Positions 3,524 to 37,553 are shown, counted from the stretch's first letter. The stretch: DNA of 64,000 nucleotides from Dehalococcoidia bacterium (GCA_965204895.1 OZ242025.1:1604864-1668863); one strand, 5' to 3'. The notes: generated by a model from the letters alone, not told the origin. Numbers and translations: made by a program.

Positions 3524-3558
3524 GAGCCGGTCAGCCCAAGTAGCTGATCGCATGAGCA

Positions 3559-3598
3559 CGGGGGAGGCATGTCGCCGCAAGGGCGACGGCCTCCCCCG
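3559..3598 (+). terminator. GC-rich hairpin closing the PRTRC operon
   Basis: CGGGGGAGGC-atGTCGCC-gcaa-gGGCGAC-gGCCTCCCCCG stem-loop; no clear U-tract. Confidence 0.5.
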
Positions 3599-3688
3599 CC
3601 CGGACCCATATATGCGGGCTTTTGGCATTTCAGGCCGGTTGGCACCCATATGTGGAGTCTCTTGGCATTTAAGAAAGGGGAGGAATCG

Positions 3689-4063: not shown

Positions 4064-4152
4064 AAGGACGGCCCATCCATATGTGGGCGCTTTTTGCGTT
4101 TGCGGAGTGTATGGCCGGGAGAACCGGCCATGTATGCAGCCCTTGTTGCGTT

Positions 4153-4893
4153 TCAATAAAAGGGCGACGCGACCTCAGGGTCCCCGCGCCAGGCGGCATC
4201 CAGCGCGTCGGGGATGTGTGCGTTGGTCAGCTCGCCTTTCCAGTAGGCGGCGCGCTCGGCCTTGGCGAGGCTGGCCGCCTGAACTTCCCATCCGGGGTTG
4301 GACTCCCGGATCGCGCGGGCGATGTCCGCGAGCGTCGCGCCCCGCGTGCAGAAGTCGTCGACGACGAGTACCAGGCCGGGATCGCCTCCGATGGAGGTAG
4401 CCAGGTACACCCCGTCCACGGTGGCGTCCCGCTCGGCCGCGGAGGCGATGCCGGTGAGTCTGGGATGCCGGTTCTTGGTTATGACTTCCGGGCGCCACTC
4501 CCAGGCGCGGGATCCTGCAAGCGCGCACGCCAGTCTCGACGTCGGCGTGTCGTATCCCACAACGATGTCCGCTGAAGAGACCGAGGAGACGACGACGACA
4601 CGCGGATTCCCGGCGGGGAGGAAGTCCTCGAACGCCGCACAGAACGTGCGGGTGGCCGCTTCGATGGCGCGGCGTTCGCCTCTTTTGAATCGATTGAAGC
4701 GGGCGGTCCACTTCTCGCCGGGCCGATCCGTGATGCGGAACCCGACCGTGAGCAGCCCCAAATCGCCGACCGGGAGTCGCTTGATCTCCATCAACCGGCC
4801 CATTACGCCGTAGTTGCCTGCGGCCTCCTCGCCAAACAGGCGGGCCGCGTAGGAGGACGGCGCTTCCTTTGCCGGTCCCGTTTCCTTGTCCAT
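4153..4893 (-). CDS. Type I phosphoribosyltransferase-fold (ComF-like) protein
   Basis: PRPP-binding loop VLVVDDFCTRGATL; AGGAG RBS before the ATG at 4893. Confidence 0.8.
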   Translation of the reverse strand: MDKETGPAKEAPSSYAARLFGEEAAGNYGVMGRLMEIKRLPVGDLGLLTVGFRITDRPGEKWTARFNRFKRGERRAIEAATRTFCAAFEDFLPAGNPRVVVVSSVSSADIVVGYDTPTSRLACALAGSRAWEWRPEVITKNRHPRLTGIASAAERDATVDGVYLATSIGGDPGLVLVVDDFCTRGATLADIARAIRESNPGWEVQAASLAKAERAAYWKGELTNAHIPDALDAAWRGDPEVASPFY

Positions 4894-4982
4894 GCGTTCT
4901 CCTCCTGTACGGTTCCCGTATACGACCCCAGTTGCAATGCGGCCAGCGGTCCCCCGCCGTCCCTGTGCGGCCCTCTTGCGTT

Positions 4983-5261
4983 TCAGGCGCTCGCGGCGGG
5001 GGCATGCGGCCCGGCCTCGTTCGTGAAGATGTGGCCGTGGCCCATGCTCCCGGCCAGTTCCACGAGGGCCCTCAGATGGTGCTTGTTGGGCCGGGCCCGG
5101 CCCTCCTTCCACCGCCATACGGTGTTGCGATAGGTCCCAAGACGGCGGGCGATCTCCGACCACGACAGCCCCGACTCCTCCCGGAACCGCTCCAGTCGTT
5201 GCGGGAAGTCGTCGGGGAGGGGGTGGGTGTCTCTGCTGTGGAGTATGCGCTGCCTCGGCAT
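4983..5261 (-). CDS. XRE/Cro-CI HTH transcriptional regulator
   Basis: FPQRLERFREESGLSWSEIARRLGTYRNTVWRWKEGRARP. Confidence 0.85.
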   Translation of the reverse strand: MPRQRILHSRDTHPLPDDFPQRLERFREESGLSWSEIARRLGTYRNTVWRWKEGRARPNKHHLRALVELAGSMGHGHIFTNEAGPHAPAASA

Positions 5262-5578
5262 GGAGCCAATCTCTTCTCGGTTTCCTCGCTGTTGACTGCA
5301 CCCGGGGCCGGGCTACCACCCTTTCTGCTTGCGCACGGGACGACTTCTCAAGGTGAGAGTTGCCCGCAGATGGAGAGCACCATGGCGGCCATCCCCGTGT
5401 CGGGACCGCCCGGCTATGCGATGGACGCCGGCATCGCTGGAGCCAACCGGGCTCCGGGCGAAATCACAGGCACTACGCATCGACGGCTTCGGCAGTCGAC
5501 GCGCGGTCACACGTACCTTGTAAACACCGGTACGGTCGGCGCCTTCCGAACCCCCGAGTTCCAACTCCAGCATCCGGT

Positions 5579-22270: not shown

Positions 22271-22318
22271 TCGCAGTGGCGTGCGCCTCTTGACCTTCTA
22301 CCAATAGGCCGAGGGGAT

Positions 22319-23083
22319 TCACTGGATGTCTTGGCTTGTGGGGAGTAGAGGACGGATCTGCTTTTCCCGAACCTCCCCGAGCGCGTAGTCCTTTAGCCTG
22401 TCGACATCCGGCACATGCACCGACCCCGAGAATCTATCGCTGTTGTCGTCCCCGATGCGGATGAGGTCGGCAGCAGCGAGTGTTGAAATCCCGCCCGCGA
22501 CAGCCGAGCGAGACATGGCCGTCAGGCGAACGATGTCTCGCTGCCGCAGGATGATCTCGCGTTCGCAACCGTGATCCTCTCCTATCAGGGCGAGGCGGGA
22601 AATCAGGGCGGCCGTTACCCTCTGCGCCGGACTCCCGCTGATGGCGAGGGTGATCCAGTAGTAGCGCGCCAAACGCCTCAGCAAGACAAGGTACATCTCG
22701 GCACGTATCTGAGGGATCCTTTCAACTGTGAGCTTCATGGTGGCGACCGGGATGGCTACCACGGTCGCAGGCGTTGCCGCCGAATAGGAAGCCACCCAGC
22801 GCTTCGCACCCATCATGAACTCGTGGTCGCCTATGAGGAAGGGGGAGGACAGGTCCGAATATGGATACTGCCATGGCACGATCATTCCGTGCTGAACGAA
22901 GTACAGGTACCTGAACGGCTGCCCCGACCGAATGAGTGCGATGTCAGCGGAGGGCTCGATTACCAACATCTCCAATGGCTCCTGGCCACGAGAGAGAGCA
23001 TCTTCAAGCTCGACAGTGTCGACAGACTGAAAGGCCTGACACCGAGCTAGCGCCTGGGCGAAACCGGCGATTTCAATTGCCAT
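22319..23083 (-). CDS. Crp/Fnr-family transcriptional regulator (cNMP-binding domain plus HTH), divergent from CBASS
   Basis: LIRSGQPFRYLYFVQHG...IGDHEF...ASYSAATPATVVAIP jelly-roll, hinge SPAQRVTAAL, HTH LRQRDIVRLTAMSRSAV. G-rich RBS before ATG 23083. Confidence 0.85.
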   Translation of the reverse strand: MAIEIAGFAQALARCQAFQSVDTVELEDALSRGQEPLEMLVIEPSADIALIRSGQPFRYLYFVQHGMIVPWQYPYSDLSSPFLIGDHEFMMGAKRWVASYSAATPATVVAIPVATMKLTVERIPQIRAEMYLVLLRRLARYYWITLAISGSPAQRVTAALISRLALIGEDHGCEREIILRQRDIVRLTAMSRSAVAGGISTLAAADLIRIGDDNSDRFSGSVHVPDVDRLKDYALGEVREKQIRPLLPTSQDIQ

Positions 23084-23156
23084 GACGTGTAACCCCCAAT
23101 CATGATGGCGCCATATTAGCATACCAACGGGCATATGCGAAGATGTCCTCACTGCA

Positions 23157-23185
23157 TTGACTTTGTCTGTCAGAAGACATATTCT
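23157..23185 (+). promoter_or_regulatory. Sigma70-like promoter of the CBASS operon with an operator-like palindrome in the spacer
   Basis: -35 TTGACT (23157-62), 17-bp spacer, -10 TATTCT (23180-85). TGTCT-N6-AGACA at 23164-23179. Confidence 0.7.
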
Positions 23186-23229
23186 GGTGCCATGGGGGTA
23201 TGCACTCAATGGACGAAGGCGACGGATAG

Positions 23230-24756
23230 ATGAGAGCGGTTACTGCTCGGCAACAGGGAGACACGTACCAGGGACGAGTGTTCTGGCTGGAGGTGTGCCG
23301 CCTGTTCCAACGTCACACGAAAGTTGCGTGCGTTGGGTGCGAGATCGACGATGTCCCACACTTCGACGATGTCGCCGTCCTCTACTCCGAGCCAATCAAG
23401 GACGCCCACGGGGAGTTGGTCTCCGCCGACTACTATCAGATCAAGTGGCACGTCGACCAGGGCGGGGCGCTCACCTGCGACGCCCTAACGGACCCGTCCT
23501 TTATCGGCTCCAAGAGCACATCACTCCTCCAGCGGCTGTATGAGGCCGTCAGGGCGACATGGGCGAGAAACGAGACGGCAAGGTTCACCTTCATGACCAC
23601 GTGGAGCATCCCGGCCGATGACGTCCTTGCGAAGCTGGTGAGCGGACGCGATGGAGAGTTGAGGCTGGAAGTCCTGTTCGGCAAGGGCGCTTCCTCCCGG
23701 TTCTCCCGGGTCGTAGAGCAGTGGTCGAACCACCTGGGAGTGGGCCACGAGGAGCTGCGTAGTGTGCTCGCCCGCCTGCGGATCTCTGCCAGCTCTTTCA
23801 CCCTCGACAACCTGACCAGGACACTGAGTGAGCAATTGGCGAGGGTCGGCTTCAGAGCAGTTGACCAGGGCAGCCGCGCCAATCCATACGACAGCTTGAT
23901 CGAACGCCTGCTTTCCGAGGGGCGGAACAAGTTCACGGCCTCGGAGGTCCGGAGTATCTGCAGCGAGGAAGGACTATGGACGAACCCGGAGACGGACTAC
24001 GAAGCTCCCCTTGTCGGCATCAGGAGCTTCCTCCGGTTTGCCGAACACATGGAAGACGAAGTTGACCACTTGCTGGACCTTGCAGATCTGTTTGACGGCA
24101 GGGAGATCAGTGCACCGGAATACTGGAACGCCAGGGTTGGCCCCAAGATACATGAGTTTATGACGAGATCGGTCGCTCCCCTTGGTCAGTGCAATCTGCA
24201 CCTCTCGGCGCATAGTTCCATCGCTTTTGCGGCCGGGTACGAACTGGACGTTAAGTCCGGCACACGCGTCTCGCTAGTCCAAAACACAGCCGCCGGTAGA
24301 GTGATTTGGGACTCCTCCTCCGTGATGGCGAATCTAGACCCCAATCCCTGGAGTGTCTCAGACATCAGTGCGCACCCGAGCGGTCGTGAAGTCGGCATCG
24401 TCCTCTCGGTAACCCACGACGCAAGCTCTGAGGTTCTGGCGCATGTTCAGGAGCACATCCCAGAAGTCGGCCACGTACTCGCTTTCACGATTTCGCCCGG
24501 CATTGGCCCAATGGCAGTGAGGGGCGGGGGCCACGCGTGGATACTGGCACAGGAGTTGGTGAAGACCGTTCGGGAGCTATATCCGCGGCTCACTCCCACG
24601 GGCCCCTTGCACATGTTCAGCGCAGCCCCCAACGGCCTTGTTTTTCTTGTAGGGAGGCTCGCTCGCAGCCTTGGATCGATACAGCTGTACGAGCACGGCT
24701 TTGACTCCAACTGGCCCTCCAGGTATCGAAAGTCCCTGTCACTACCCATCGAATAG
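23230..24756 (+). CDS. cap4: CBASS effector: Cap4-like restriction-fold endonuclease plus SAVED sensor
   Basis: N-terminal GxxYQ...FDDV...YQIK nuclease motif. SAVED motifs LHLSAHSSIAFAAGY and LHMFSAAPNGLVFLVGR...LYE. Confidence 0.85.
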   Translation: MRAVTARQQGDTYQGRVFWLEVCRLFQRHTKVACVGCEIDDVPHFDDVAVLYSEPIKDAHGELVSADYYQIKWHVDQGGALTCDALTDPSFIGSKSTSLLQRLYEAVRATWARNETARFTFMTTWSIPADDVLAKLVSGRDGELRLEVLFGKGASSRFSRVVEQWSNHLGVGHEELRSVLARLRISASSFTLDNLTRTLSEQLARVGFRAVDQGSRANPYDSLIERLLSEGRNKFTASEVRSICSEEGLWTNPETDYEAPLVGIRSFLRFAEHMEDEVDHLLDLADLFDGREISAPEYWNARVGPKIHEFMTRSVAPLGQCNLHLSAHSSIAFAAGYELDVKSGTRVSLVQNTAAGRVIWDSSSVMANLDPNPWSVSDISAHPSGREVGIVLSVTHDASSEVLAHVQEHIPEVGHVLAFTISPGIGPMAVRGGGHAWILAQELVKTVRELYPRLTPTGPLHMFSAAPNGLVFLVGRLARSLGSIQLYEHGFDSNWPSRYRKSLSLPIE

Positions 24757-24785
24757 GAATCAAGACCCGACAAAGGAGCAGGAGA

Positions 24786-25907
24786 ATGGAACTGAACAGC
24801 TACTTCACGGACTTCCTCACCAAGATCAGGCCGACGGAGGCCCAGACCAAGGAACTGCAGGAGGCTCACACGCGCCTGCGAGAAAGACTACTGGCCGACG
24901 AGTACCTCGGGCCCAAGATCGTCAGCGTGTTCCTGCAGGGGAGCTATCGAAGATCGACGTCCATCCGACCACAGGGGGAGGACAAGCTGGACGTAGACCT
25001 GGTCGCCGTTACTCGATTCCGCCGCCAAGACTACCCGGTGGCCGACGACGTGATGAAGGAGTTCACCTCCTTCCTGAACAAGCACTACAAGGGCAAGTGG
25101 AAGAGGAAGGGACGGTCCATCGGCATAGAGATGTCCCACGTGAAGCTCGATCTGGTTATCGCGGCGGCACCCTCGGAAGAGGAGTCCTTGTCCTCCGACT
25201 TCGTCCAGGGGTACTTCACGCCTGACGACTGGCCAAAGAGCTCTGGCGCCGTGCCCGAGTATCTTGCGGATTTCTTCAAGGAACACCGCTCGGGAGAGCC
25301 GCAGTGGAAGCAGGAGCCTCTCTACATCCCCGACAGGGACACCCATGAATGGCAGCGCACCCATCCCCTGGAACAGTACAGGTGGACCACCAACAAGAAC
25401 AGGCGCACGGATGGTCACTTCGTCAACATCGTGAGGTTGGTCAAGTGGTGGTGGAGGACGGCGCATCCCGAGATTGAATATCCAAAGAGCTATCCCCTGG
25501 AGCATCTGGTCGGCGACTGCTGCCCGGACAAGGTTGAGAACCTGGCGCAAGGGTTCACCCTCGTACTAGAGAAGATGGTCGCCACGTACTCGGCATACGC
25601 GGCCGCGGGGATGGTCCCCTTCGTTCCAGACCGGGGAGTTCCCGAGCACAACGTGCTCAAGCGTCTGTCCCCAAGCGACTTCTCAAAATTCATTGAGCGT
25701 GTCAAGAGCGCCTCTGCCGTGGCGCGGAAGGCCTTGGAATCCGGCGATACGTCGGAGAGTGCGAACCTGTGGCAATCGCTCTTCGGCAAGAGGTTCCCGT
25801 CCCCTCCGGGTGGATCATCGGGAGCGGCGGCCGGGGCCGCAGCGGGGACTGCCGGATTCACGCCTCGCCGAGAGCAGACGCGCGTTGGAGGCGGAAGATT
25901 CGCCTAG
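24786..25907 (+). CDS. CD-NTase (cGAS/DncV-like, SMODS) cyclic oligonucleotide synthase
   Basis: QGSYRRSTSIRP...DVDLV...DLV triad, VRLVKWW, KSYPLE, flexible tail ending GGGRFA typical of Cap2 substrates. Confidence 0.92.
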   Translation: MELNSYFTDFLTKIRPTEAQTKELQEAHTRLRERLLADEYLGPKIVSVFLQGSYRRSTSIRPQGEDKLDVDLVAVTRFRRQDYPVADDVMKEFTSFLNKHYKGKWKRKGRSIGIEMSHVKLDLVIAAAPSEEESLSSDFVQGYFTPDDWPKSSGAVPEYLADFFKEHRSGEPQWKQEPLYIPDRDTHEWQRTHPLEQYRWTTNKNRRTDGHFVNIVRLVKWWWRTAHPEIEYPKSYPLEHLVGDCCPDKVENLAQGFTLVLEKMVATYSAYAAAGMVPFVPDRGVPEHNVLKRLSPSDFSKFIERVKSASAVARKALESGDTSESANLWQSLFGKRFPSPPGGSSGAAAGAAAGTAGFTPRREQTRVGGGRFA

Positions 25908-27724
25908 CTACTCGCCAGGAGGGATCACTCACTGAGGCTCTCCGCCTGGGTCGCAGAGCCCTGGAGTCGGTGCCGGGCATAAGGATGCTGGGGGACTTCG
26001 TCTGGTACGAAGATCGAGTGCTCTGGGCTCTGCAGTGTAGGATCACCGCGGACGTTGACCCAGGAGGCCTAATACCTCCTACAACCGACTGGTACGTCCA
26101 CGTCCGTGACACATACCCGTCCGGCCAGATCATCTTCTACCCGGCGAAGGCCGGGGGTGTAACGCACACGTTCAATCACCAGAATCACAATGGCGTAGGC
26201 CCCGACGAACTGCCGTGGAGATGTGGACGTCTCTGTGTCGACACAAGCCTTCGCACTCTGGGCCGTCGTTCCTACGATGTCGAGCCGTTCGACGCGGAAT
26301 CCAGGCTCGCCTGGCATGTCCGCCGGGTACAGGAGTGGCTTGGCCTAGCGTCACGGGGCCAACTAGTCCAGCCTGGCGACCCTTTCGAGTTGCCGCATGT
26401 TCCGTTTTCCACCGGTCCCAAGGTTGTCTTCGCCGAAGGACCGGAGAATCTCTCCTTCTGGTTGGGGCGCCACCCCCGAAAGGGCGCCGCAACTGTCCGA
26501 ATCCTGGAGGAAGACCCACCGATTCTCGTGGTGGACGACCTGAACGTGGGCAGGTCGGGAGTAGGCCTCCAGGCCCCCTGGACCAAACCTCTCGGCAAGG
26601 AAAGCGATCTTTCCGTGGCGTGGATCTGGCTCGACCGGCTACCTGTGGTCGAACCATGGGCGATACCAACAACATGGGGGGAGCTCCGAATGTGCTGCAA
26701 AGCACAGGGGGTTGATCTTGACTCTTTGTTGAGGCCGCTATGCGGCAAGCTCAGGGACAGCGGGAGGCACGTTCTGCTTGTTGGATTTCCAATCCCGGCA
26801 AGATTCAAGGAACCTGATGTCCAGGTCCACTGGCTCGCACTCTGGCTCCCTGCCCTGACCTCACGACCCCTGCCGGGATTTCGCCCCACGGAGTCGGGTT
26901 ACTGGAGCCGGGACCGATCGGTGGTGTTCGGAGACAGCGTGCCTCTCGAGTGGGTCGAGACCGAGAATTGGCACCAGGATGAGATATCAGGCCGGGGAAG
27001 GGTGAACCCATCGGTACGGTCAAAGTCTATTCTGATCATCGGTGGTGGCGCGGTTGGCTCGGCGCTGGCCGAAATGTTGGTCCGCTCAGGCGTCCAGGAT
27101 GTGACGATCATGGACGACGACCGCCTCAAGGTTGGCAACCTTGTCAGGCACACCCTCGGAGTTAGTCACCTGGACAAGCGCAAAGCTCTGACTCTGGCGG
27201 ATCGCCTCAATGATGCGGCGGTCCATTCAATCGTAACCCCCATAGATGCCACATTTCCCCCAACTGACCGCAAGGACATCAATCGGGTACTGGACGCCGA
27301 TGTCGTCATCGACTGTACCGCAGACGACTCAGTTGCGGAGCAAATGCGTAGGTTCGCCTGGGACGGCCCCGTTACCTTCGTGTCAGTGTCAGTTGGCTTG
27401 AAGGCCATGCGGGCGTTCATTTACGTGGCCCACAGCAACACCTTCCCTGCTGACGACTTCGCAGATAGGCTGGATCCTTGGCTGCGATCTGAATTGGATG
27501 GTTACGATGAGGAGTTGCCGCGGGATGGCACAGGATGTTGGCATGCGCTGATGCCGGCGCGGGTCGACGACATCTGGATGATGACCGGGGCGGCCGTAAA
27601 GGCTATAGAAGCCGCGATAGCCGGGCCTCCGAGTGAGCCCACCCTGGTCGTGTTTGAGCAGCAGTACGAAAATGGTGAATTCGTTGGGCTACGTAGAGTG
27701 TCCGCACCCGATGCCAACTCCTGA
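25898..27724 (+). CDS. cap2: CBASS Cap2 (E2-E1 fusion); start codon uncertain
   Basis: E2 domain with FNHQN...GRLC. E1 domain with IGGGAVGS, DDDRLKVGNLVRH, IDCTAD, GTGCWH. Confidence 0.88.
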   Translation: MRLATRQEGSLTEALRLGRRALESVPGIRMLGDFVWYEDRVLWALQCRITADVDPGGLIPPTTDWYVHVRDTYPSGQIIFYPAKAGGVTHTFNHQNHNGVGPDELPWRCGRLCVDTSLRTLGRRSYDVEPFDAESRLAWHVRRVQEWLGLASRGQLVQPGDPFELPHVPFSTGPKVVFAEGPENLSFWLGRHPRKGAATVRILEEDPPILVVDDLNVGRSGVGLQAPWTKPLGKESDLSVAWIWLDRLPVVEPWAIPTTWGELRMCCKAQGVDLDSLLRPLCGKLRDSGRHVLLVGFPIPARFKEPDVQVHWLALWLPALTSRPLPGFRPTESGYWSRDRSVVFGDSVPLEWVETENWHQDEISGRGRVNPSVRSKSILIIGGGAVGSALAEMLVRSGVQDVTIMDDDRLKVGNLVRHTLGVSHLDKRKALTLADRLNDAAVHSIVTPIDATFPPTDRKDINRVLDADVVIDCTADDSVAEQMRRFAWDGPVTFVSVSVGLKAMRAFIYVAHSNTFPADDFADRLDPWLRSELDGYDEELPRDGTGCWHALMPARVDDIWMMTGAAVKAIEAAIAGPPSEPTLVVFEQQYENGEFVGLRRVSAPDANS

Positions 27725-28184
27725 CCTCACCATGTGCTCCCCCGATGGGCGGTTTCGAGTCCAAGTTGGGCATCACGAGTTGGAGGCTCTATTGGATATT
27801 TGCCGCGAATCCGGCGACCTGGAAACCGGGGGAGTCTTGGTTGGTCGATACAACGAGGCTCACGACACCGCAATAGTGACACGAGTGTGGGGCCCGCCGG
27901 AAGACTCAGTCAGGAGGCGGACCAGCTTTTGGAGAGGAACTGAAGGCCTGCAACGGCATCTGGACGGGCTGTGGACGGTCCAGGAATACTACCTTGGGGA
28001 ATGGCACTATCATCCCCGGGGAGGCGGTCAACCCAGCGCTGGAGACAAACGACAGATGGTTCGGATTGCCGAATCGCTTGACTACAACACTCCGGAACCC
28101 GTGCTGATAGTAGTCGGTGGATCGGGCTGGGAAGTGGCGGCCCACGTGTTCCCGCGGCACAGTGCAGCGATTGGGCTAGTCTGA
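27711..28184 (+). CDS. cap3: CBASS Cap3 JAB deconjugase
   Basis: ETGGVLVG...YLGEWHYHP...PSAGD JAMM motif; overlaps the cap2 stop. Confidence 0.9.
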   Translation: MPTPDLTMCSPDGRFRVQVGHHELEALLDICRESGDLETGGVLVGRYNEAHDTAIVTRVWGPPEDSVRRRTSFWRGTEGLQRHLDGLWTVQEYYLGEWHYHPRGGGQPSAGDKRQMVRIAESLDYNTPEPVLIVVGGSGWEVAAHVFPRHSAAIGLV

Positions 28185-28204
28185 ACGCAGCTACAGGTGA
28201 GCCT

Positions 28205-28981
28205 ATGGACGATATAACCGAATGGTGGAGTCGCCTCTCTCCTTTCTTGATACCGATAGCGGCGGCGGTGGTGGCACTGCTCATACGGGACCTGTTGGAG
28301 CCCCATCAGTGGCAACGCTACGTTCGCAAAGTGACCGCAAGCGCATTTGCCGGCATCCTGGTCTTCGCTGGCATTGCCGCAGGGTACATATTGTTTCTCC
28401 AACGCGTGGGCAGCGAAGACAGCCTGCTCGCCACCATCGCTACGTTCGTGGTTGGTCTAGGAACAATTCCTGCCATGGGATTCGCAGTGTTTCTCGTGTT
28501 CCGCAGAGTGGAACCCGATCTCGACTCGTACATGAACAGTCGCTTTGTGTTTTCTTTTCGGAATGGATCGTGGCCGGTTCTCTTCATGAAGGTGTCCTCG
28601 AAGTGCCTTCCCGAAGGCGCGACGTCTATTGTTGGCCGTATCTCTGCTGTGAAAGAAAACATAGGGGAATATCACCTATCGGTTGACGTCGGAACTGGAA
28701 GTGACGTCAGGACTGTGCTTGATGGAACAACCAGGGACTCTCAGCGTGGCTGGATGCGGGTGATGCAGGCGGTTCTCAAGGCGCAGCTTGGAGACCTGAA
28801 CGAGAATGTAGAGTGGCAAGACCGCATCCACCTCTATGGCAAACTCAGAGACCGGCTCAAGAGTTGGAACCGTCCTCCGACTCCACCCATGGCGGCACGT
28901 TACACATGGCAAAACGACGCCTACATGCAAGTCCATCGTCTGGCACTGAGGATGGATTCAACGGGTGTCCGCCGCCGATGA
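28205..28981 (+). CDS. Membrane protein (3 N-terminal TM helices plus soluble domain), co-oriented after cap3
   Basis: AGGTGAG RBS, 20 bp after the cap3 stop; three hydrophobic segments. Confidence 0.7.
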   Translation: MDDITEWWSRLSPFLIPIAAAVVALLIRDLLEPHQWQRYVRKVTASAFAGILVFAGIAAGYILFLQRVGSEDSLLATIATFVVGLGTIPAMGFAVFLVFRRVEPDLDSYMNSRFVFSFRNGSWPVLFMKVSSKCLPEGATSIVGRISAVKENIGEYHLSVDVGTGSDVRTVLDGTTRDSQRGWMRVMQAVLKAQLGDLNENVEWQDRIHLYGKLRDRLKSWNRPPTPPMAARYTWQNDAYMQVHRLALRMDSTGVRRR

Positions 28982-29365: not shown

Positions 29366-29618
29366 ACAACACCACAACAACGCCGGACTGTTGAGGCTGA
29401 GCGGACTGTTTCGCAGAGAACGCGGAAGCCCTTGGCCGCAGGTACGTGTTATAGCTGCGGCGCAACCGGCGTCTACCAATGCCTAAGGGGCCCCACATCT
29501 GACCCCGAGAAACTGTATAGCTGTTTATTCGGATTTGCCAACAAGACTGTTGCCAACAACCTTGTTGGCATGTTATGCTGGGCCTTACAGACTTATAGAA
29601 GCAAGGGAGGCAGCCCGT

Positions 29619-30872
29619 TTGACCACCCGACTTAGGAAACAGCCGTCCAACTGGGTCGACGGCGACCAGTTCTTCGACCGTGAAGCCGAACTCGAGGCAC
29701 TGAAGGAGCGTGTCGCGGAAGGCACCCACACGCTACTCACAGCCCAGCGGCGGATGGGCAAGACCAGCTTGGTGAGGGAACTACTACGCCGGCTGAAGGC
29801 AGACGGAGGCTACGAAACCCTATTTGTCGACCTTGAGGGCGCCGGCACACCTGCGGACGCCGTAGCCGAGATCGCCTTTGCGGCCCGTTCGATCTCCACC
29901 GCTTGGATACGCATCAGATCTGGTTTTGCCAATTTCCTACAGGGTGTTGGAGATCGCATCGAAGCTGTGGAAGTTGCCGATCTGAAGGTGAGGCTTCGCT
30001 CAGGGATCGACAGCGGAACTTGGGACCGCCGAGGCGATGAAGTCTTCGCGGCTCTAGCGGCGGTTGACAGGCCGGTGGTCCTCGCCATCGACGAGTTGCC
30101 CATACTCGTTAACAGGCTACTCAAGGGGCATGACTATCAGATTACGCCGGAGCGACGCGCGACAACTGACCTATTCTTGAGCTGGCTAAGGAGAAACGGT
30201 CAAACACATCGCGGCAAGATCACTCTGATTGTCTCAGGAAGTATTGGTCTCGATCCACTCTTGAGCCAGGCACGCCTCAGCGCTCAGGCGAACATCTTCT
30301 CGCCCTTCGAACTGAAGCCCTGGAACGAAGAAACGGCCATGGAATGCCTGGCTGCATTGGCACGCTGGCATCAAGTTGACCTTCCTATCGAAGTGCGGAG
30401 AAGGATGTGTGACCTCCTGCGCCGCTGCATTCCCCAGCATATCCAGCAGTTCTTCGATCACCTACACGAGCACCTGCGTCGGGAGGCCCGGCCAGTGGCC
30501 AATATCGACGACGTTGCTCACGTGTTCTACCGCGACCTACTGAGCGTAAGGGGCCAGATTAACCTTCAGCACTACGAGGACAGACTAAGAACGGTCATGG
30601 GGAACCAAGGCTACACTACCGCAATTAGCATCCTCACTGAAGCTGCCGTAAATGGTGGCTTGCTGACTGAGCACGCCGCCCGCAGCTACGAGAACGAGCT
30701 CATGGCTTCAAGACATCCGGACGACCTGTCGATCAACGGCATCTTGCACCTGCTGGAGCATGACGGCTATCTCGAACGCCAGGATGAAGGCTACCGTTTC
30801 GTGTCTGGTCTGCTTGAGGAGTGGTGGCGGGCCCGGCACGGCAGGTTCTTCACCCCAATTGCTGAAAGGTAG
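29619..30872 (+). CDS. STAND/AAA+-type P-loop ATPase
   Basis: GGGAGG RBS and TTG at 29619; FFDREAEL, Walker A AQRRMGKTS, Walker B VVLAIDE, sensor VSGS, C-terminal wHTH-like region. Confidence 0.85.
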   Translation: MTTRLRKQPSNWVDGDQFFDREAELEALKERVAEGTHTLLTAQRRMGKTSLVRELLRRLKADGGYETLFVDLEGAGTPADAVAEIAFAARSISTAWIRIRSGFANFLQGVGDRIEAVEVADLKVRLRSGIDSGTWDRRGDEVFAALAAVDRPVVLAIDELPILVNRLLKGHDYQITPERRATTDLFLSWLRRNGQTHRGKITLIVSGSIGLDPLLSQARLSAQANIFSPFELKPWNEETAMECLAALARWHQVDLPIEVRRRMCDLLRRCIPQHIQQFFDHLHEHLRREARPVANIDDVAHVFYRDLLSVRGQINLQHYEDRLRTVMGNQGYTTAISILTEAAVNGGLLTEHAARSYENELMASRHPDDLSINGILHLLEHDGYLERQDEGYRFVSGLLEEWWRARHGRFFTPIAER

Positions 30873-30891
30873 AGGTTTGGAGAGGCCCAAG

Positions 30892-33021
30892 ATGGCGGTG
30901 GCAACCAAGAAATACAACCCCGGCTTCCTCTCTGACAACGAGATCATAGAGACGTTCTGCGTACGCCGCGATGAGTTCGCATCGATCATGGAGTCCGTGC
31001 GGGAATGTACGGGCAATTCCAATACGCACACCATAGTCATCGGACCACGCGGGAGCGGGAAGACCCATCTGCTCCTGCGAGTGGCGGCCGAAGTGCGCCG
31101 GGACGCCTCACTCTCTGGCTACTTCTCGGTCGTCTTGTCCGAGGAGAGCTACGAGGTCGCCACGATAGGAGAGTTCTGGTTAGAGTGCCTGGCACGTCTG
31201 GCAGAGCAGGCTCCCGCAACCGAACGCTCCCAGCTGCGCCGCTCTTATTCCGACATCAGGGAGACGGCTGATGACCGGGACCTGGCGGACCGGTCCCTGG
31301 GTTCGATTCTGACCTTTGCTGACCGACACGAGGTGCGCGTCCTGCTGGTCGTCGAAAACATGAACATGCTCTTCTCGGACATGGCCGACCCTGACGCAGG
31401 TTGGCGATTACGCCAGACGCTCCAGGTCGAGCCCCGGATCATCCTCCTTGGAAGTGCCACAAGCCGATTTGCGGAGATAGACAGTCCAGACCGTTCCCTG
31501 TACGAACTCTTCAGGGTCGTTACATTGTCGGCACTGGACACTGAGGGTTGTGGCACGCTCTGGTCGTCACTGTCAGGACAACCCAGGGGAAGCCAGCAGA
31601 TAAGGCCGCTCCAGATCCTTACCGGGGGGAACCCTCGCCTGATCTCTGTGGTAGCCGGTTTCGAGAAGACGTACTCATTCAGGGACCTCATGTCCAATCT
31701 GCTGGATCTGGTTGATGAGCATACCGAGTACTTCAAGAGCCATATCGAAGCCCTTCCGCCCCAAGAGAGGCGGGTGTACCTGGCCCTGGCCAGGTTGTGG
31801 AAACCGGCGTCGGCCAGTGAAGTCGCTTCGCAGGCTCGCGTGAAGGTCAATGCCTGCAGCGCTCTGCTCAAGCGGCTGGCAGATCGCGGGGCTGTGTCGA
31901 TAGAAAGCGGATCGAGGCGGCGGCGAACATATTATGTCGCCGAAAGGATGTACAACATCTACTACTTGCTCAGGCGCCCCGGCGCCGAGAGCTACGTTGT
32001 CGATGCACTGGTTCACTTTATGGCGAGCTACTACTCTCCGGACGAACTGGTGGACATTGGCATCAGCATGGCCGAGGGCTTGAACGAGGCGGAACCTCGA
32101 CTGAAGGACGTCCAGTTCAAGGCGTTTCGACAGTTGATTGCGTTGCCGGAGCTAGGAGACCTGCTCGTCGACCTGTTGACCCAGGACTCCGTCATAGCTG
32201 CATTTGGTACCGTTCAGGAACCCGAGTATGTCGAGCCAGTGATTAGCGCATTGATTGCCAAAGCGAAAACCACGGCAGCCGAGCAGCGTTTGGAGGAGGC
32301 TCTCGGCTATTGGGATGAAGCAATCCGGATAGCCGACGAAATTGGAGCCGACCACTTGATCGTCGCCAAGGGTGTAGCGACGTTGAACAGAATCAGTCTG
32401 CTGAGGAAGCTGGGCCGGAACGAGGAAGCTATTGAAACAGTAGCTGTGAATTACTTGGATCGTGACCAACGCGTTGGTGTCGACATGGCGGACCTAATCG
32501 TCAGCCTGGAGTTAGGCGTTGGTGACGTCTCAGTCCATCCTATTGGAATAGTCTACCGGGCCTTCACACTGCTCACGTTCGGAAACGTTGAAGCGGCCTT
32601 GAGGGAGGTCGATTCCGCTTTGGGGCGTCTCGAAGACGCGACCGGTGATAAAGATCGACTGTTGCGGCAGGTGGCGATCGTTATGAAGGGACTACTGGCG
32701 GCGACAAAGGGGCGAGCGATCCGGAAGACTGATGCCGAGATGCTGGTCTCGGACATTGCAGAGCAAGGTTTTGGAATGCTACCGACCCACAGTGTGCATG
32801 TCCTGCTCCAATACGTCGCAACGATTGAACCGACCGAGGCGTTGATCATGATTGAACGAGCCGGTGCGATTGACCCTCTGCAACCGATTGTGGTTGCGTT
32901 GCGGAGAGAACTTGGACAGAGCCCCTCAGTGGCTCGAGAACTGGATGAGGTGTCCAATGACGTTCAACACACCATCACTCAGATGAGGGAAGGCCTCAAC
33001 CCTGACTTCGATCAGGACTGA
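30892..33021 (+). CDS. STAND-like ATPase with wHTH and C-terminal TPR-like repeats
   Basis: KYNPGFL start, Walker A GPRGSGKT, Walker B LLVVEN, TGGNPR (GxP), helical TPR-like C-half. Confidence 0.85.
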   Translation: MAVATKKYNPGFLSDNEIIETFCVRRDEFASIMESVRECTGNSNTHTIVIGPRGSGKTHLLLRVAAEVRRDASLSGYFSVVLSEESYEVATIGEFWLECLARLAEQAPATERSQLRRSYSDIRETADDRDLADRSLGSILTFADRHEVRVLLVVENMNMLFSDMADPDAGWRLRQTLQVEPRIILLGSATSRFAEIDSPDRSLYELFRVVTLSALDTEGCGTLWSSLSGQPRGSQQIRPLQILTGGNPRLISVVAGFEKTYSFRDLMSNLLDLVDEHTEYFKSHIEALPPQERRVYLALARLWKPASASEVASQARVKVNACSALLKRLADRGAVSIESGSRRRRTYYVAERMYNIYYLLRRPGAESYVVDALVHFMASYYSPDELVDIGISMAEGLNEAEPRLKDVQFKAFRQLIALPELGDLLVDLLTQDSVIAAFGTVQEPEYVEPVISALIAKAKTTAAEQRLEEALGYWDEAIRIADEIGADHLIVAKGVATLNRISLLRKLGRNEEAIETVAVNYLDRDQRVGVDMADLIVSLELGVGDVSVHPIGIVYRAFTLLTFGNVEAALREVDSALGRLEDATGDKDRLLRQVAIVMKGLLAATKGRAIRKTDAEMLVSDIAEQGFGMLPTHSVHVLLQYVATIEPTEALIMIERAGAIDPLQPIVVALRRELGQSPSVARELDEVSNDVQHTITQMREGLNPDFDQD

Positions 33022-33234
33022 AGGGGGATGTTCGTTGTGAGGGTGCTGTTGCGATTTGAAGGAATTAGCGAGACCGTGAGGAGAAACTGAAGCCGAAGCA
33101 GCGCTGTTCTACATTCTTGCATTGGTGTTTTACATGCCTAGGTTGATCAAGTTGGAGATAGAAGTCCTGAGAAAGGCAATGCACCTGTATAGGGTTTACG
33201 AATATTGGAGTCGAGTGGACAACTGGTGGGTGAG

Positions 33235-34110
33235 ATGAATGGCCAGAAGGAAGACGTGAAGGATACCTGTCCTCCTCTGTCCAGCCTCTTAACCTTGAAA
33301 GTCAAAGTGACAGCCGACGGAGTCGGTTGTCTATTTGGGCGTCTTGAGCACCATCAGAGCGAAGCTGCCGCAATGTCGCTAGCATGCAGTATCGCTAGGC
33401 GACGACTCCCAGACGATAGACTCTTCGAATTGTGGCATGGTCATGCTACGGGTGAGACTGAAGGGGAACTGAGCGACATAGACTCCTTAGTCTTGCAAGC
33501 AGCACTCCTACAGAATCTTGGATCACCTGCTGAACCTGCTATCGATCAACACTTACTTGGTCTCGTCGCTGAAGGTATGTGGCAGGGTGTGATAGAGCAC
33601 ATTGACGTCGGCCTCGGGACTCCTATCCGAGTCGAGGGTCATGACTGGTCTGTAACTGACCCGGGTGGTGATGGTCTGACGGTCTACGGCTCAAGTGGTA
33701 GCTACTGCTATCGGTTATGGGAGTCAAAGTATCACGGCACCGACGAGGTGCTTAAGACGACAGTCAACGGGGCATGTAAACAGGTAGGCAATCGAGCTCT
33801 CGAATATCTGGCGCGCTTCTCGCTCGTGGCACAATACCTCTCCGAAGACCAACAACTGGCGGCATTCTACGGGCGTCTAGCTGAGCTTTGGGCTGACAAA
33901 GACCCAGCTGCTGGTGTCGGAATCGTAGTCGGGACCGACAGTGATCACAGGGAGGACGGTGAAGACTGTTTCGAGGGAATGACGACTCATTTTGAGCTGA
34001 CTGCTGATCAACACCAAGGACACCTTAATCTGGTCGACGGCTTCCGGACATTTGCTGAATCAGTCCGACGAGTTCTGTGGAAAGGCTGTGGGCTATGGAC
34101 CGAGCCTTAG
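33235..34110 (+). CDS. Hachiman HamA-like PD-(D/E)xK nuclease
   Basis: GLVAE...GGDGL...LWESK motif; overlaps the downstream helicase start. Start could be 33205. Confidence 0.65.
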   Translation: MNGQKEDVKDTCPPLSSLLTLKVKVTADGVGCLFGRLEHHQSEAAAMSLACSIARRRLPDDRLFELWHGHATGETEGELSDIDSLVLQAALLQNLGSPAEPAIDQHLLGLVAEGMWQGVIEHIDVGLGTPIRVEGHDWSVTDPGGDGLTVYGSSGSYCYRLWESKYHGTDEVLKTTVNGACKQVGNRALEYLARFSLVAQYLSEDQQLAAFYGRLAELWADKDPAAGVGIVVGTDSDHREDGEDCFEGMTTHFELTADQHQGHLNLVDGFRTFAESVRRVLWKGCGLWTEP

Positions 34111-37100
34111 ACCTTCAACTCTTGACTAGCGCACTGGGAGAGCACCCTCGGTTGCCATCTCCGGAGGCTCTCCAAAGGCTACTTTCAGAGGCTGAAGTCA
34201 ATCTCTTCACACATCGAGCGGAATTCGATCCTCAGTTGCTCGACACTGGTTGGTATCTCCAATCGGTAGCTACGGCACGGGAGGACCTAGACCTGTATGG
34301 CATCGAGCGACAGCGGCAGGCGCACCAGGTCTCTGCACATATCTTTGATCTGGCCCTACAGCGTGAAAACCTGACGGGCTTGGAGGTGCTGCAGTACACG
34401 TTCGCAGCGCAGATTGCGTACATGGGTGGGGAGTTGACGCCGAACGCTGCTGCGCTCGCCCGGCGCCTCGCAATTGTTCGAGAGCCCGAACAATTGGGGA
34501 ATCCCGGAATCGTTTCCCTTGAGGCGGGAGTGCTCTTGTTAGCCCTTAACAGGCCTGCTCTTTATCCGCTACTCGACAGGCGGATCACCCAATTGGACTC
34601 TCTCGCCGCTGAGTTCGGCGATATCCGCGATTCGCAATATGCCTCAGCCGATGGTGTCGTAAGGGGAGTTCGTGACCTTACAAGCTACCTCACTTACGGC
34701 TCTAGCGATGTATTGTCTCGCGCGCGAGCCCATTTGAGACGAGCACTTGAGAGTCGAGAAGCGCCCAGTGACGTTGAGTCCCGTTGGGTAGCTGCACACC
34801 TGTTGAGGATGGCGGATGGCCTGGAGACAAGCTCCGTATGGAGTGTACTGCCCTCCAACCTCCCGAGTGCGGCACGTGCCATGACGTTAGGCGATCCGCC
34901 GGTTCTGCAGCTATGGCCTCCGCAACTGTCGTTTCTTACTGGCGGCGAACCAGGGGAACCATCACCTCTGGACCCCTCCGTGCGACGAGTGATCCTCTCT
35001 TTCCCTACCAGCGCAGGGAAGAGTCTATTGGCGCAACTGTTTATTACTTCCCATGTTGTGGGGGGTAAGGGTGACGTGTGCGTCGTTGCCCCAACACACA
35101 GCCTCTGCCGCGAACTGAGTGCTTCCCTGCGGCGACGCCTCAGGACGCTCGGACAGCACCTGTATGTCGAGCCACCTCTCGGTCTTGGTGTAGCGAAGCC
35201 AGCAGCAGCCCGAGTCGCTGTTATGACTCCCGAAAGGCTTGCGGGCCGACTTCGTAGTGATCCAGCCGGACTACTCGACGAATTCGGAATGTTTGTCATC
35301 GATGAGGCACACCTTGTCGCGGATCCGGAACGAGGTTGGCGTTTGGAGGAGACTCTCTCCTTACTAAATCACGTCACGAAGGCTACACACCATCGGATCC
35401 TAGTGCTCTCAGCAGCTCTTGGTAGTCAGGCGCATGTGATGGCTTGGCTCGATGACGGTAACGGCGTGCTCGCACGGCATAACGATTGGCGTGGTCCCCG
35501 GCGTTTGTCTGTGATCTTTACGACGAGACCAGACTGGGAATCTGAAACCTTCGAGGAACCTCAGGGCTCACGCCTCGCGCGACGCGTTGCTCCGCTCGTG
35601 GGGGTGGTGCATCTCCGAACGGGACTCGCTGGATCCATCACCAGAGGAGAATTCTCCGAACCTGTCGGTGAACTCGTGCGCCGGCAAAAGAGAGATGGTG
35701 GTTGGACGCGCGATGGACAGAGCACCACTCAGAGGGCCCAATTGTTGCCTCTGATCGACCACATTCGGCAGACCGGATCGGTTCTGGTTATTGAAGCAAC
35801 GAAGAGTTCTGTGCAGAGGCTTGCCGAAGAGATCGCCGACTCTCTCGAAGACGATCCTGCGACATTTGCACTTGCTGACCTGGTTCGGACGAGGCTAGGA
35901 CCTGAACATCCCCTTGCGCGAGTGATTCCAAAGGCCGTCGCCTTTCATCATGCAGCTCTTCCTGTCGACATACAGTCAGAAATCGAGGACGCCGTTCGAG
36001 CCGAGCAAATCAAATGCCTGGTTGCAACCACCACACTGACTGAAGGCATCAATCTCCCCTTCAAAAGCGTTGTTGTTGCCCAACGGGGCTTTCGAGACTC
36101 CGATGGTTTCGTCGAGGTGGTTGATGATGCGCGACTGCTCAACGCTGTTGGACGAGCGGGGCGCGCGGGGCGCGAAACTGAGGGGTGGTTGATACTTGCG
36201 GAACATCGACCCTTCCACGCATCCATGTTTGAGCCGCTCAATAGAACTGCGATTGACCTCGAAATGCAGTCGACCATGGTATCGGAGGTTGCCCTCCATC
36301 AGCTCGCAGAACTAGAAGAAGCGGCAAGGGCGGGAGAAGATGCGATATTCGCGAACGTTGGTCCCGAAGCAAACGGTTTCGTTCGGAGTGTGTGGCTCAT
36401 CGCCCAAGCATTGTCGGAACTGAGTGCTACTCCCAGCGATGAGGAAGTGCTAGACGCCATCAAGGCTACACTCGCCTGGCAACAGTTGGACGAGGCCGGC
36501 AAAGAAAAGTTCCTGGAAGTGGCGTCACGAGCATATCGCGCCTTTTCAGAGCATCCAGTCGAAACAAGGAAAAGGTGGGCCCACTCAGGAATGTCACTCC
36601 CCAGTGCAGCATCCTTGGAGGTGGTCGCGGAAGAAGTACTTGGAATGATTACAGAGGACATCGCCCAGAGTGAACCACCGCTGGCTATCGCAGAGATCCT
36701 CGGGGACGGGCGTCTTGCGCGCATCCTGGAATTGGCGGAGAACCAGAGGAGGGGATTCAAGGCGAGTCGGAACTCTCCGCGGGATGAACTCTTGCCCGTC
36801 GACCTTATGGCTCTTCTCATCGACTGGGTGTCCGGTGTTGATCTTCAGGATCTCGGAGACAGGCACCTCGGAGCCGTAGGGAGCGAGGACTACCGCTACG
36901 AACAGCTAGCTGAGTTCGTCGCATCCGTCTTTGAACACTACCTGCCTTGGGCCTTGGGTACTGTAATTGATTGGGTGAATGACGCGCTTCAGTCCAAGCC
37001 AACATCCTTCAAGATCCCAGATGACCTGGCTGCAGCGGTCCATTATGGAGTCGCTACAAGGGACGCGCTGAGTCTTATGCAGGGTGGTGTTCGCTCACGT

Positions 37101-37553
37101 AGGCTCGCCAACCGTGTAGCTGAGAACCGCGCCGCGCATGAGACGGAATCAAAGGAGACGCCACTACGGGATTGGCTTACAAGTCAGGACATTTCCGTGT
37201 GGCGTACCAGTTTCGATGCATCGCCTACGGAAGTCGCCGACTTGCTGGCCTTCTCTCGCGACCCGAGCGTTCAACTTGTCAACAGAGTCCTTGAAGGAGA
37301 GGACTATGTTCTGCCGTATGTCGAGCGCGCCGCCATCCTCTTCGAGTCCCAAGCCAGTCTCGAATATGAGCCAGATCAGCCAACGCCTGCGCCACTGGTA
37401 ATACTCGTGAATTCTGAGATCGTGGGCGCGGTCGGTCCAGAACACCACGATGATGTCTCTCTACTCTCTGGAATCGGCATACCCCTGGACATTCGGGTCC
37501 GTCCGTCAACGTCAGGTAGCGAACTCCTACTCCGACTAGCATCCGAAATGTAG
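34095..37553 (+). CDS. Ski2-like SF2 DEAH helicase (Hachiman HamB-like)
   Basis: LWPPQ, PTSAGKS, TPER, DEAH, LSA, FHHAAL, TTTLTEGINLP, GRAGRAG; helical N-terminal extension. Confidence 0.85.
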   Translation: MDRALDLQLLTSALGEHPRLPSPEALQRLLSEAEVNLFTHRAEFDPQLLDTGWYLQSVATAREDLDLYGIERQRQAHQVSAHIFDLALQRENLTGLEVLQYTFAAQIAYMGGELTPNAAALARRLAIVREPEQLGNPGIVSLEAGVLLLALNRPALYPLLDRRITQLDSLAAEFGDIRDSQYASADGVVRGVRDLTSYLTYGSSDVLSRARAHLRRALESREAPSDVESRWVAAHLLRMADGLETSSVWSVLPSNLPSAARAMTLGDPPVLQLWPPQLSFLTGGEPGEPSPLDPSVRRVILSFPTSAGKSLLAQLFITSHVVGGKGDVCVVAPTHSLCRELSASLRRRLRTLGQHLYVEPPLGLGVAKPAAARVAVMTPERLAGRLRSDPAGLLDEFGMFVIDEAHLVADPERGWRLEETLSLLNHVTKATHHRILVLSAALGSQAHVMAWLDDGNGVLARHNDWRGPRRLSVIFTTRPDWESETFEEPQGSRLARRVAPLVGVVHLRTGLAGSITRGEFSEPVGELVRRQKRDGGWTRDGQSTTQRAQLLPLIDHIRQTGSVLVIEATKSSVQRLAEEIADSLEDDPATFALADLVRTRLGPEHPLARVIPKAVAFHHAALPVDIQSEIEDAVRAEQIKCLVATTTLTEGINLPFKSVVVAQRGFRDSDGFVEVVDDARLLNAVGRAGRAGRETEGWLILAEHRPFHASMFEPLNRTAIDLEMQSTMVSEVALHQLAELEEAARAGEDAIFANVGPEANGFVRSVWLIAQALSELSATPSDEEVLDAIKATLAWQQLDEAGKEKFLEVASRAYRAFSEHPVETRKRWAHSGMSLPSAASLEVVAEEVLGMITEDIAQSEPPLAIAEILGDGRLARILELAENQRRGFKASRNSPRDELLPVDLMALLIDWVSGVDLQDLGDRHLGAVGSEDYRYEQLAEFVASVFEHYLPWALGTVIDWVNDALQSKPTSFKIPDDLAAAVHYGVATRDALSLMQGGVRSRRLANRVAENRAAHETESKETPLRDWLTSQDISVWRTSFDASPTEVADLLAFSRDPSVQLVNRVLEGEDYVLPYVERAAILFESQASLEYEPDQPTPAPLVILVNSEIVGAVGPEHHDDVSLLSGIGIPLDIRVRPSTSGSELLLRLASEM

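Follow-up and report, generated by a model that had tools for sequence, protein, structure and literature searches.

A portable promoter cassette with a divergent Crp/Fnr-type gene, proposed as a local regulator of CBASS and related immune operons

What controls the expression of a bacterial immune operon when a gene for a transcription factor of an unexpected kind lies head-to-head with it? This question is raised by a stretch of DNA from a Dehalococcoidia bacterium (GCA_965204895.1 OZ242025.1:1604864-1668863), analysed here over its full length of 64,000 nt. This stretch is referred to as the window and positions are counted from its first letter. Five genes are present at 22319-28184, as identified from open reading frames (ORFs), translations, PADLOC, and Pfam. 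Four on the plus strand encode a type II cyclic oligonucleotide-based antiphage signalling system (CBASS) and one on the minus strand encodes a protein of 254 amino acids (aa), called the regulator here after its proposed role. The arrangement given in an earlier note on this DNA, in which the regulator gene is head-to-head with cap4-SAVED, CD-NTase, cap2, and cap3 across a gap of 146 bp, is borne out by the ORFs, PADLOC, and Pfam. The account favoured here, with moderate confidence, is that the protein is a dedicated local factor of the Crp/Fnr type carried on a portable cassette, and that its dimer, at a palindrome within the spacer of the operon promoter, would repress the adjacent immune operon until a signal arrives. 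There is good comparative-genomic support for control of the CBASS by a Crp-type protein; that it binds DNA at the palindrome, represses the operon, and is gated by a ligand is what we infer.

The Crp/Fnr superfamily fold of the 254 aa protein is established by a family profile and a structure model. Taken alone, the sequence scores 15.4 bits against the Pfam family cNMP_binding (PF00027, cut-off 27.5) and 14.7 against HTH_Crp_2 (PF13545, cut-off 27), both below threshold, and the sub-threshold E values are 0.0075 for MarR_2, 0.019 for cNMP_binding, and 0.032 for HTH_Crp_2. No NCBIfam or PADLOC model matches it and a phmmer search of the PDB gives E values of at least 0.19. The profile made from an alignment of 29 family members (A1), with identities down to 21%, finds full-length Crp-family matches in the PDB over both domains (E 4e-11 to 1e-8). 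It aligns onto the beta-roll of CRP, GlxR, Vfr, and the CNG/HCN channel domains and continues through the helix-turn-helix (HTH) to CRP residue ~201. An AlphaFold2 model of the regulator (pLDDT 89.6) has beta-roll strands at residues 38-112, a long C-helix at 124-147, and a winged HTH at 181-204. Foldseek places this model closest to M. tuberculosis CRP, GlxR, and CAP in the PDB (E 1e-11, probability 1.00, ~20% identity), with Crp/Fnr regulators making up all of the top matches, and the ESM Atlas neighbours are HTH_Crp_2 clusters. The earlier note's 'Crp/Fnr-fold' therefore stands as a statement about fold, although the single sequence does not reach the curated Pfam thresholds. Since membership rests on profile and fold, with these thresholds not passed, the protein is best seen as belonging to an outlying Crp/Fnr branch. 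The family is also small and isolated in sequence, because a HMMER search of 1.84 billion representatives returned only 78 clusters at E <= 0.001 (the clusters are unnamed). The 254 aa protein probably founds a small, sequence-isolated branch, and its role would be that of a local transcription factor dedicated to the immune operon, of whatever kind, across its divergent promoter region. One member (P0127) is a fusion protein of 586 aa, in which the regulator is followed by a 330 aa tail with no Pfam domain.

Homologues of the regulator were collected from relatives, one-genome-per-species contigs (15 loci), metagenome contigs (16 loci), and a phylum sample. Merging of duplicates left 31 distinct places, 29 of which have at least 900 bp upstream and are assessable; L041 and L042, with less than 750 bp upstream, were left out. 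The regulator faces a CBASS or a related immune operon in 24 of the 29, always directly divergent to the operon's first gene. The divergent placement beside CBASS or other defence operons that the earlier note had suggested looking for is thus the usual situation. A CD-NTase-containing CBASS is directly divergent in 20 places, with four gene arrangements. Six have the order of the window (Cap4 / CD-NTase / Cap2 / Cap3). Eleven have TIR-SAVED first, with a different CD-NTase (PDLC00810) and a different E1-E2 (PDLC00847), while in two the cyclase is first and TIR-SAVED last, and in one (L038, regulator 44% identical) a third cyclase is directly divergent. At two places, L014 and L018, the other CBASS genes are gone, but the regulator and the intergenic region are intact beside a truncated TIR-SAVED gene, which suggests that the regulator outlives its operon. 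At two others, L032 and L049, it faces operons with E1, E2, and JAB genes in which no CD-NTase was recognised, that of L049 being a Bub-like set (Table 1). The 376 aa protein facing the regulator in L032 has only weak matches to LmuA, RTasMBL, and the Avs1a N-terminus.

Further observations were made at some of these places. In L034, a second short cyclase gene (PDLC00803, 1.6e-82) and a 219 aa partner are found downstream of the regulator (7423-8840), overlapping its 3' end on the opposite strand, so that this regulator is flanked by two cyclase systems. In L049, IS21-type transposase genes are 1.8 kb downstream of the regulator.

Comparison of the loci indicates what is shared between them. 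The nucleotide homology of the window to the five other Cap4-type loci runs from 22340-22359 to 28160-28189, which is the regulator and the four CBASS genes and nothing else. Against five close TIR-type loci it is limited to 22311-22350 to 23185-23190 (80-85% nucleotide identity), comprising the regulator and the intergenic region, with the final base of the -10 hexamer in the predicted CBASS promoter as its limit. A sixth TIR-type locus, in which the regulator is more distant (L048, 72% identical), aligns over the regulator gene only, to 23083. Nor is the regulator tree sorted by CBASS type, with three TIR-type and two Cap4-type rows in a clade with 100/98 support, and the type labels are no more clustered than those of shuffles (139 and 222 of 500). 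The homology between the window and the TIR-type loci covers the regulator and intergenic region only, stopping at the -10 hexamer, and this is therefore a portable regulator-promoter cassette. On this comparative evidence, one regulator-promoter unit has recombined with different operons at the transcription start. The cassette of ~0.85 kb takes in the regulator gene together with its promoter and that of the operon, and has been joined to unrelated CBASS and E1/E2/JAB operons.

The link also has its limits. Five of the 29 places (L026, L037, L039, L040, and L050) have no recognised immune operon, and regulators of 45% identity or less are on contigs too short for good judgement, except for L038. 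Common descent links the loci that have a module in common, so that as independent evidence there are about five or six distinct junctions rather than 24 places. In addition, L023 and L025 come from one metagenome-assembled genome (MAG) with identical CBASS proteins and may be one locus assembled twice. Most CBASS loci of the relatives do without the regulator, which adjoins only 4 of the 22 above-cut-off SMODS places in the 61 genomes. The gene is accessory, being present in 4 of 61 related genomes and 5 of 401 sampled phylum genomes (both counts include the genome analysed here), and in 0 of 6 other genomes of the same genus. The family is rare and almost confined to MAGs of the Chloroflexota.

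It could be argued from the five places without a recognised adjoining immune operon that the gene regulates something else, or is left over from a mobile element, and is simply carried along with defence islands. The surroundings of L050, amid conjugation genes (TraG-like and relaxase) and a type ISP restriction enzyme, would fit with this, as would the occurrence, within a DISARM-like island (L011), of a fragment from the regulator's C-terminus. However, at all 24 positive places the gene directly adjoins the operon's first gene in divergent orientation, and the homology common to the CBASS types breaks off precisely at the -10 hexamer of the operon. A search of 72,556 plasmid and 50,697 phage records gave no homologue, and the genome contains only one other exact copy of the palindrome. 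Such hitch-hiking is therefore regarded as very unlikely, and local control of the adjoining operon is retained as the preferred account. The fragment at L011 (G027:C1, 9514-9741) is 76 residues long, and the genes in its island are DrmB-like, DrmMII-like methylase, and type III restriction-like. A broken regulator, in two pieces of 79-80% identity, is present with a conserved intergenic region in a Latescibacterota MAG (L026, 7826-8593), where the neighbours include a NucC/PD-DExK-like protein (DUF6602). Since this is another phylum, transfer across phyla is suggested.

The intergenic region (23084-23229) contains two predicted promoters, which were compared across an alignment (A2) of 15 loci of both CBASS types. 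A consensus scan of the region identified 2 promoter-like sites against 0.3 expected. In the CBASS promoter, the TTGAC and TA..CT are invariant in all 15 loci. The predicted promoter of the regulator was missed by the consensus scan; the TGCTA and final T of its -10 are likewise invariant in the 15 loci. The palindrome TGTCT-GTCAGA-AGACA (TGTCT-N6-AGACA) in the CBASS promoter is the candidate operator. Its TGT and GACA are invariant in 15/15 rows, the central bases vary, and of the 14 close-clade rows tested, 7 have the palindrome in its perfect 5-6-5 form. The same layout precedes the Bub-like operon of L049, with TTACTG-N18-TATAAT and TGT-N10-ACA at -96.

From this layout, the putative dimer would most likely bind TGTCT-N6-AGACA between the -35 and the -10. 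There it would block RNA polymerase and keep the CBASS low, and a signal reaching the beta-roll domain would release the regulator from the promoter. The centre of the palindrome is ~20 bp upstream of the predicted CBASS start and ~65 bp upstream of the predicted regulator start. At CRP-dependent promoters, a site ~20 bp upstream of the start is in the position of a repressor, not that of a class I or class II activator. Repression is proposed because the candidate site has its centre at this distance and lies within a promoter of near-consensus sequence. Crp/Fnr proteins that have been characterised are mostly activators, and it is possible to envisage a liganded dimer that switches the CBASS promoter on, or one that activates its own promoter from ~-65 while repressing the CBASS. 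Allowing for the uncertainty of the start site, the distance from the palindrome centre to the predicted regulator start is indeed close to class I positions. Against activation, the hexamers of the CBASS promoter are near-consensus (TTGACT/TATTCT) with 17-nt spacing, and it should therefore not need an activator; the candidate site is between the -35 and the -10, where activators of the Crp/Fnr family do not act; and the known dedicated CBASS regulators are described as repressors. An activating or dual role is considered unlikely, which leaves repression as the preferred mode.

The palindrome itself has points against it as an operator. L048, with its 72% identical regulator and TIR type, is without the TGT half-site. 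The genome has two exact copies of the palindrome, the one outside the CBASS promoter being at G000:C1:191114, and ~2 are expected, so that by count the motif is not significant. In the window, where 1.6 matches at <= 1 mismatch would be expected, there is one, and at least 1 is obtained in 79 of 100 shuffles of the window. The invariant bases of the palindrome abut the -35 and -10 hexamers, so that part of their conservation may reflect promoter constraints. A family-wide operator of the form TGT-N10-ACA was considered and rejected, as it is absent from 13 of the 13 distant places (37-63% identity), in which the recognition helix SRSAVA is nearly the same. Other palindromes are found at similar distances in the distant places, such as GTAGT-N4-ACTAC in L029 and L032 and ACATC-N6-GATGT in L036, with no unified motif. 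Because the palindrome count is at about chance level, there is no evidence in the genome for further regulon targets.

If the operon is held back by the regulator, the nature of the releasing signal becomes the next question. The three motifs that the earlier note had read in the translation are present, with GDHEF at residues 85-89, KRWVAS at 94-99, and SRSAV at 191-195. Residue equivalences were taken from the profile alignment to E. coli CRP. Gly85 corresponds to CRP Gly71, Asp86 to Glu72, and Ser76 to Ser62. The phosphate-binding CRP residues Arg82 and Ser83 are replaced by Trp96 and Val97, and the canonical cassette Gly-Glu...Arg-Ser/Thr is thus not present. The base-contacting C-helix residues CRP Thr127 and Ser128 are replaced by Tyr141 and Tyr142, within the family motif R[YF][YC]W. 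In the recognition helix, Arg192 corresponds to the DNA-contacting CRP Arg180, and CRP Glu181 and Arg185 are replaced by Ser193 and Gly197. All 29 family members, some with as little as 21% identity, have Gly85, Glu88, and Trp96. Residues 82-102 of the model form a strand, short helix, and strand, which is the phosphate-binding-cassette region with its fold kept. The pocket looks either to be in use but with a different chemistry, or to be filled by aromatic side chains of its own.

The host genome is a single contig of 2.44 Mb and is 96% complete. Class I, III, and IV nucleotide cyclases (PF01295, PF00211, and PF01928) have no match in it, the controls having matched in reference genomes, and there is one ordinary cyclic nucleoside monophosphate (cNMP)-binding domain elsewhere. 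CD-NTases are the sole nucleotide cyclases that can be recognised. A second SMODS-family cyclase is encoded outside the window (G000:C1:2190296-2190712), with no Crp-like regulator beside it. Since the pocket lacks a phosphate clamp and the genome lacks class I, III, and IV cyclases, cAMP, cGMP, cCMP, and cUMP appear to be poor candidates for the ligand. The gating of the CBASS by cAMP or by cCMP/cUMP, as put forward in the earlier note, is not upheld by these findings, and the signal is probably not cAMP or cGMP.

The broader form of that idea is that the beta-roll binds a cyclic nucleotide, whether cAMP, cCMP/cUMP, or the cyclic oligonucleotide of the adjacent CD-NTase, with feedback or cross-talk between immune messengers as the result. 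The retained fold of the phosphate-binding-cassette region, the invariance of Gly85, Glu88, and Trp96 as expected of a used pocket, and the alignment of Asp86 and Ser76 with CRP Glu72 and Ser62 are compatible with this. So is the finding that CD-NTases are the only recognisable nucleotide cyclases of the genome, and the aromatic Trp96, Tyr100, Tyr141, Tyr142, and Trp143 could stack on bases. The substitutions at the positions of Arg82/Ser83 and Thr127/Ser128 argue against it, however, and the absence of class I, III, and IV cyclases leaves no known source of 3',5'-cNMP in the genome. Moreover, regulators that are 80-90% identical serve CD-NTases PDLC00822 and PDLC00810 and differing SAVED effectors, unsorted in the tree, and regulators also serve the two operons without a recognised CD-NTase. 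Positive feedback would probably add little to an abortive-infection system once the effector has been triggered. It is improbable on balance that the beta-roll binds a cyclic nucleotide, and sensing of the CD-NTase product by the regulator is a minority possibility, being less likely because near-identical regulators serve different cyclase and effector pairs without phylogenetic sorting.

The same aromatic residues can be read in another way. Ligand-independent members of the Crp/Fnr family exist, and the unusually aromatic pocket (Trp96, Tyr100, Tyr141, Tyr142, and Trp143) might be that of a DNA binder that has filled it with its own side chains, in which case control would be through protein level, proteolysis, or modification. 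Such a plug could account for the strict invariance of Gly85, Glu88, and Trp96, but a functional site would fit it equally, and ligand independence is considered a rather unlikely explanation. A more speculative version of the preferred account, in which the operon is repressed until a signal arrives, is that the beta-roll with Trp in place of the Arg for cNMP binds a nucleotide-derived signal of immunity or infection, the candidates being the cyclic oligonucleotide made by the CD-NTase next to it and a metabolite induced by phage. This is doubtful. If true, CBASS and Bub-type operons would be gated transcriptionally by a small molecule and not by single-stranded DNA (ssDNA) or DNA damage, and this would be the first small-molecule-sensing CBASS regulator, on a plug-in promoter cassette.

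Table 1. Positions of the regulator, its predicted promoter region, and the CBASS genes in the window, and of related places with a truncated or different operon.
Feature	Position	Strand	Details
Regulator gene	22319-23083	minus	254 aa, ATG 23083
Predicted regulator promoter	23113-23141	minus	weak -35 TTCGCA (23141-23136), 17-nt spacer, TG-extended -10 TGCTAATAT (23121-23113); read from sequence
Predicted CBASS promoter	23157-23185	plus	-35 TTGACT (23157-23162), 17-nt spacer, -10 TATTCT (23180-23185); consensus scan
Palindrome, candidate operator	23164-23179		nearly fills the 17-nt spacer of the CBASS promoter
Cap4-type effector, 508 aa	23230-24756	plus	N-terminal endonuclease and C-terminal SAVED sensor; PDLC00752 1.7e-150; SAVED_PDDEXK PDLC02004 3.3e-145; Pfam SAVED 1.8e-22
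CD-NTase (SMODS cyclase), 373 aa	24786-25907	plus	PDLC00822 4.4e-134; Pfam SMODS 4.8e-26
Cap2 (E2-E1 fusion)	25970 (possible start) to 27724, frame open from 25769	plus	PDLC00848 1.3e-196 over residues 53-646 of the 25769 ORF; ThiF 9.6e-19
Cap3 (JAB isopeptidase)	27711 or 27732 to 28184	plus	start ATG 27711 or ATG 27732; PDLC00890 7.4e-43; Prok-JAB 6.6e-11
L014 and L018	~6800-7872		regulator and intergenic region intact; first 320-330 codons of TIR-SAVED kept
L032	1835-6551		regulator 57% identical; faces 376 aa protein, E2-E1-JAB fusion, patatin phospholipase
L049 (G119:C1)	3197-7950		regulator 68% identical; faces 102 aa protein, multiubiquitin, Prok-E2_E, JAB-ThiF (JAB-E1), DUF6527, AAA_21 ATPase

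The four genes that face the regulator in the window are a complete type II CBASS, with CD-NTase, Cap2, Cap3, and a SAVED-sensor effector in one operon, and this block is kept in five other loci at 72-91% protein identity. The start assigned to the regulator agrees with its homologues, all of which begin MAIEIAG. For Cap2, the GTG at 25970 is the first ATG, GTG, or TTG past the cyclase stop, and the PADLOC match begins ~15 codons upstream of it. Directly after Cap3, an ORF at 28205-28981 on the plus strand would encode 258 aa, with three hydrophobic helices predicted at the N-terminus. No family in Pfam, PADLOC, or NCBIfam matches it, and there is no homologue in any related locus. As the nucleotide homology to the sister Cap4-type loci stops at 28160-28189 and this ORF has neither family match nor counterpart, the CBASS is taken to end at 28184; the end at 28981 given in the earlier note is that of the additional ORF, which is outside the system.

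Other genes of the window were noted in passing. About 5-6 kb downstream of the CBASS is a 1158 aa DEAD-box helicase (33205-37553, plus strand; PADLOC PDC-M23B 6.6e-57 and HamB 1.2e-49), preceded by a 301 aa ORF without matches, and this is a possible Hachiman-like system. With this Hachiman-type helicase, the surroundings in the window are in keeping with a defence island. Between the CBASS and the helicase (29535-33021, plus strand) are two adjacent or overlapping ORFs for AAA/STAND-like ATPases (AAA_16, ORC-CDC6-like, and TrmB HTH), which have only weak mad8 matches. A giant ORF of 2488 aa at 5579-13045 on the minus strand has six Calx-beta stretches and fibronectin type III domains and is beside two-component system genes. 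With regard to mobile-element boundaries, there is no tRNA in the window and the flanks of the module have only short repeats of chance quality.

A fourth family of immune-operon regulators, with the fold of a classic small-molecule sensor, would indicate that abortive-infection immunity is coupled to a metabolite or messenger in some bacteria. With 5 of 401 sampled Chloroflexota genomes, the family is rare, and its hosts are uncultured organisms. The cassette would make a compact test system, consisting of one regulator gene, a 146-bp region, and any reporter, and its sharp limit at the -10 hexamer is an illustration of how, behind a fixed control module, one defence operon may be exchanged for another. 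In addition, the Crp-like family could be used as a guilt-by-association marker. The candidate immune genes that it points to are the 376 aa protein and patatin operon of L032, the operon of L049, and genes at L037 and L050.

As for known systems, regulators encoded beside immune operons have been described as CapW/BrxR, CapH with CapP, and CapK with CapS; all are described as responding to DNA damage via ssDNA, and they accompany CBASS and Bub operons alike (PMC13373217). The regulator has in common with these Cap-type regulators its divergent adjacency, in 24 of 24 positive places, and the serving of several unrelated immune operons by one family. It has no homology to the WYL, HTH plus peptidase, or STAS-wHTH (winged HTH) families, there being no PADLOC match and, in Pfam, only traces of Crp-type and MarR-type HTH. 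CapW is encoded upstream of CBASS on the opposite strand and represses CBASS (PMC9122588). The likeness to CapW/BrxR extends to the shared divergent promoter region, the association with several CBASS types and effectors, and the predicted role of repressor (PMC9122588, PMC13373217). They differ in that CapW/BrxR, which represses CBASS, BREX, and further immune operons, is a wHTH-WYL-WCX protein, whereas the regulator is a Crp/Fnr beta-roll with a wHTH and no WYL Pfam match, and in that CapW is described as sensing ssDNA, whereas the sensor of the regulator is a pocket of the small-molecule type. In range, CapW is reported for 160 of 6233 CBASS systems, and the Crp-like family is rare and almost only in MAGs of Chloroflexota. 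The CapH+CapP and CapK+CapS pairs adjoin the promoters of CBASS and Bub-type operons, and the Crp-like gene is likewise placed before the operon of L049 (PMC13373217). In contrast to these pairs, the Crp-like regulator is a single protein with no peptidase or kinase partner gene beside it, and, whereas the pairs are described as responding to DNA damage via ssDNA, nothing here points to an ssDNA signal.

No Crp-type regulator of CBASS was found in full-text literature searches, the supplementary tables of the CapW, CapH, and CapK papers being outside their scope, and the only preprint located that links CRP with defence concerns the global regulator CRP. The view in the earlier note, that no characterised Crp-type regulator is known in this position beside CBASS, agrees with the searches to that extent. 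As far as the literature was searched, a Crp-type CBASS regulator is therefore undescribed, being of a known functional kind, the controller of an adjacent immune pathway, with a new fold.

Among the Crp family itself, the regulator shares its three-part architecture and fold with E. coli CRP/CAP, GlxR, M. tuberculosis CRP, and Vfr. The candidate site resembles that of CRP in its 5-6-5 geometry with outer TGT/ACA triplets, and Arg192 takes the place of CRP Arg180. The differences are in scope, CRP being global and the Crp-like regulator, as proposed, local; in sequence, at ~20% identity; and in the residues of the cAMP site (Arg82, Ser83, Thr127, and Ser128 to Trp, Val, Tyr, and Tyr) and of the recognition helix (Glu181 and Arg185 to Ser193 and Gly197). 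Csa3 proteins are CARF-wHTH regulators of type III CRISPR loci. These would be a conceptual precedent if the Crp-like protein altered transcription on sensing an immune cyclic oligonucleotide, a ligand for which there is no evidence here, but the sensor fold differs.

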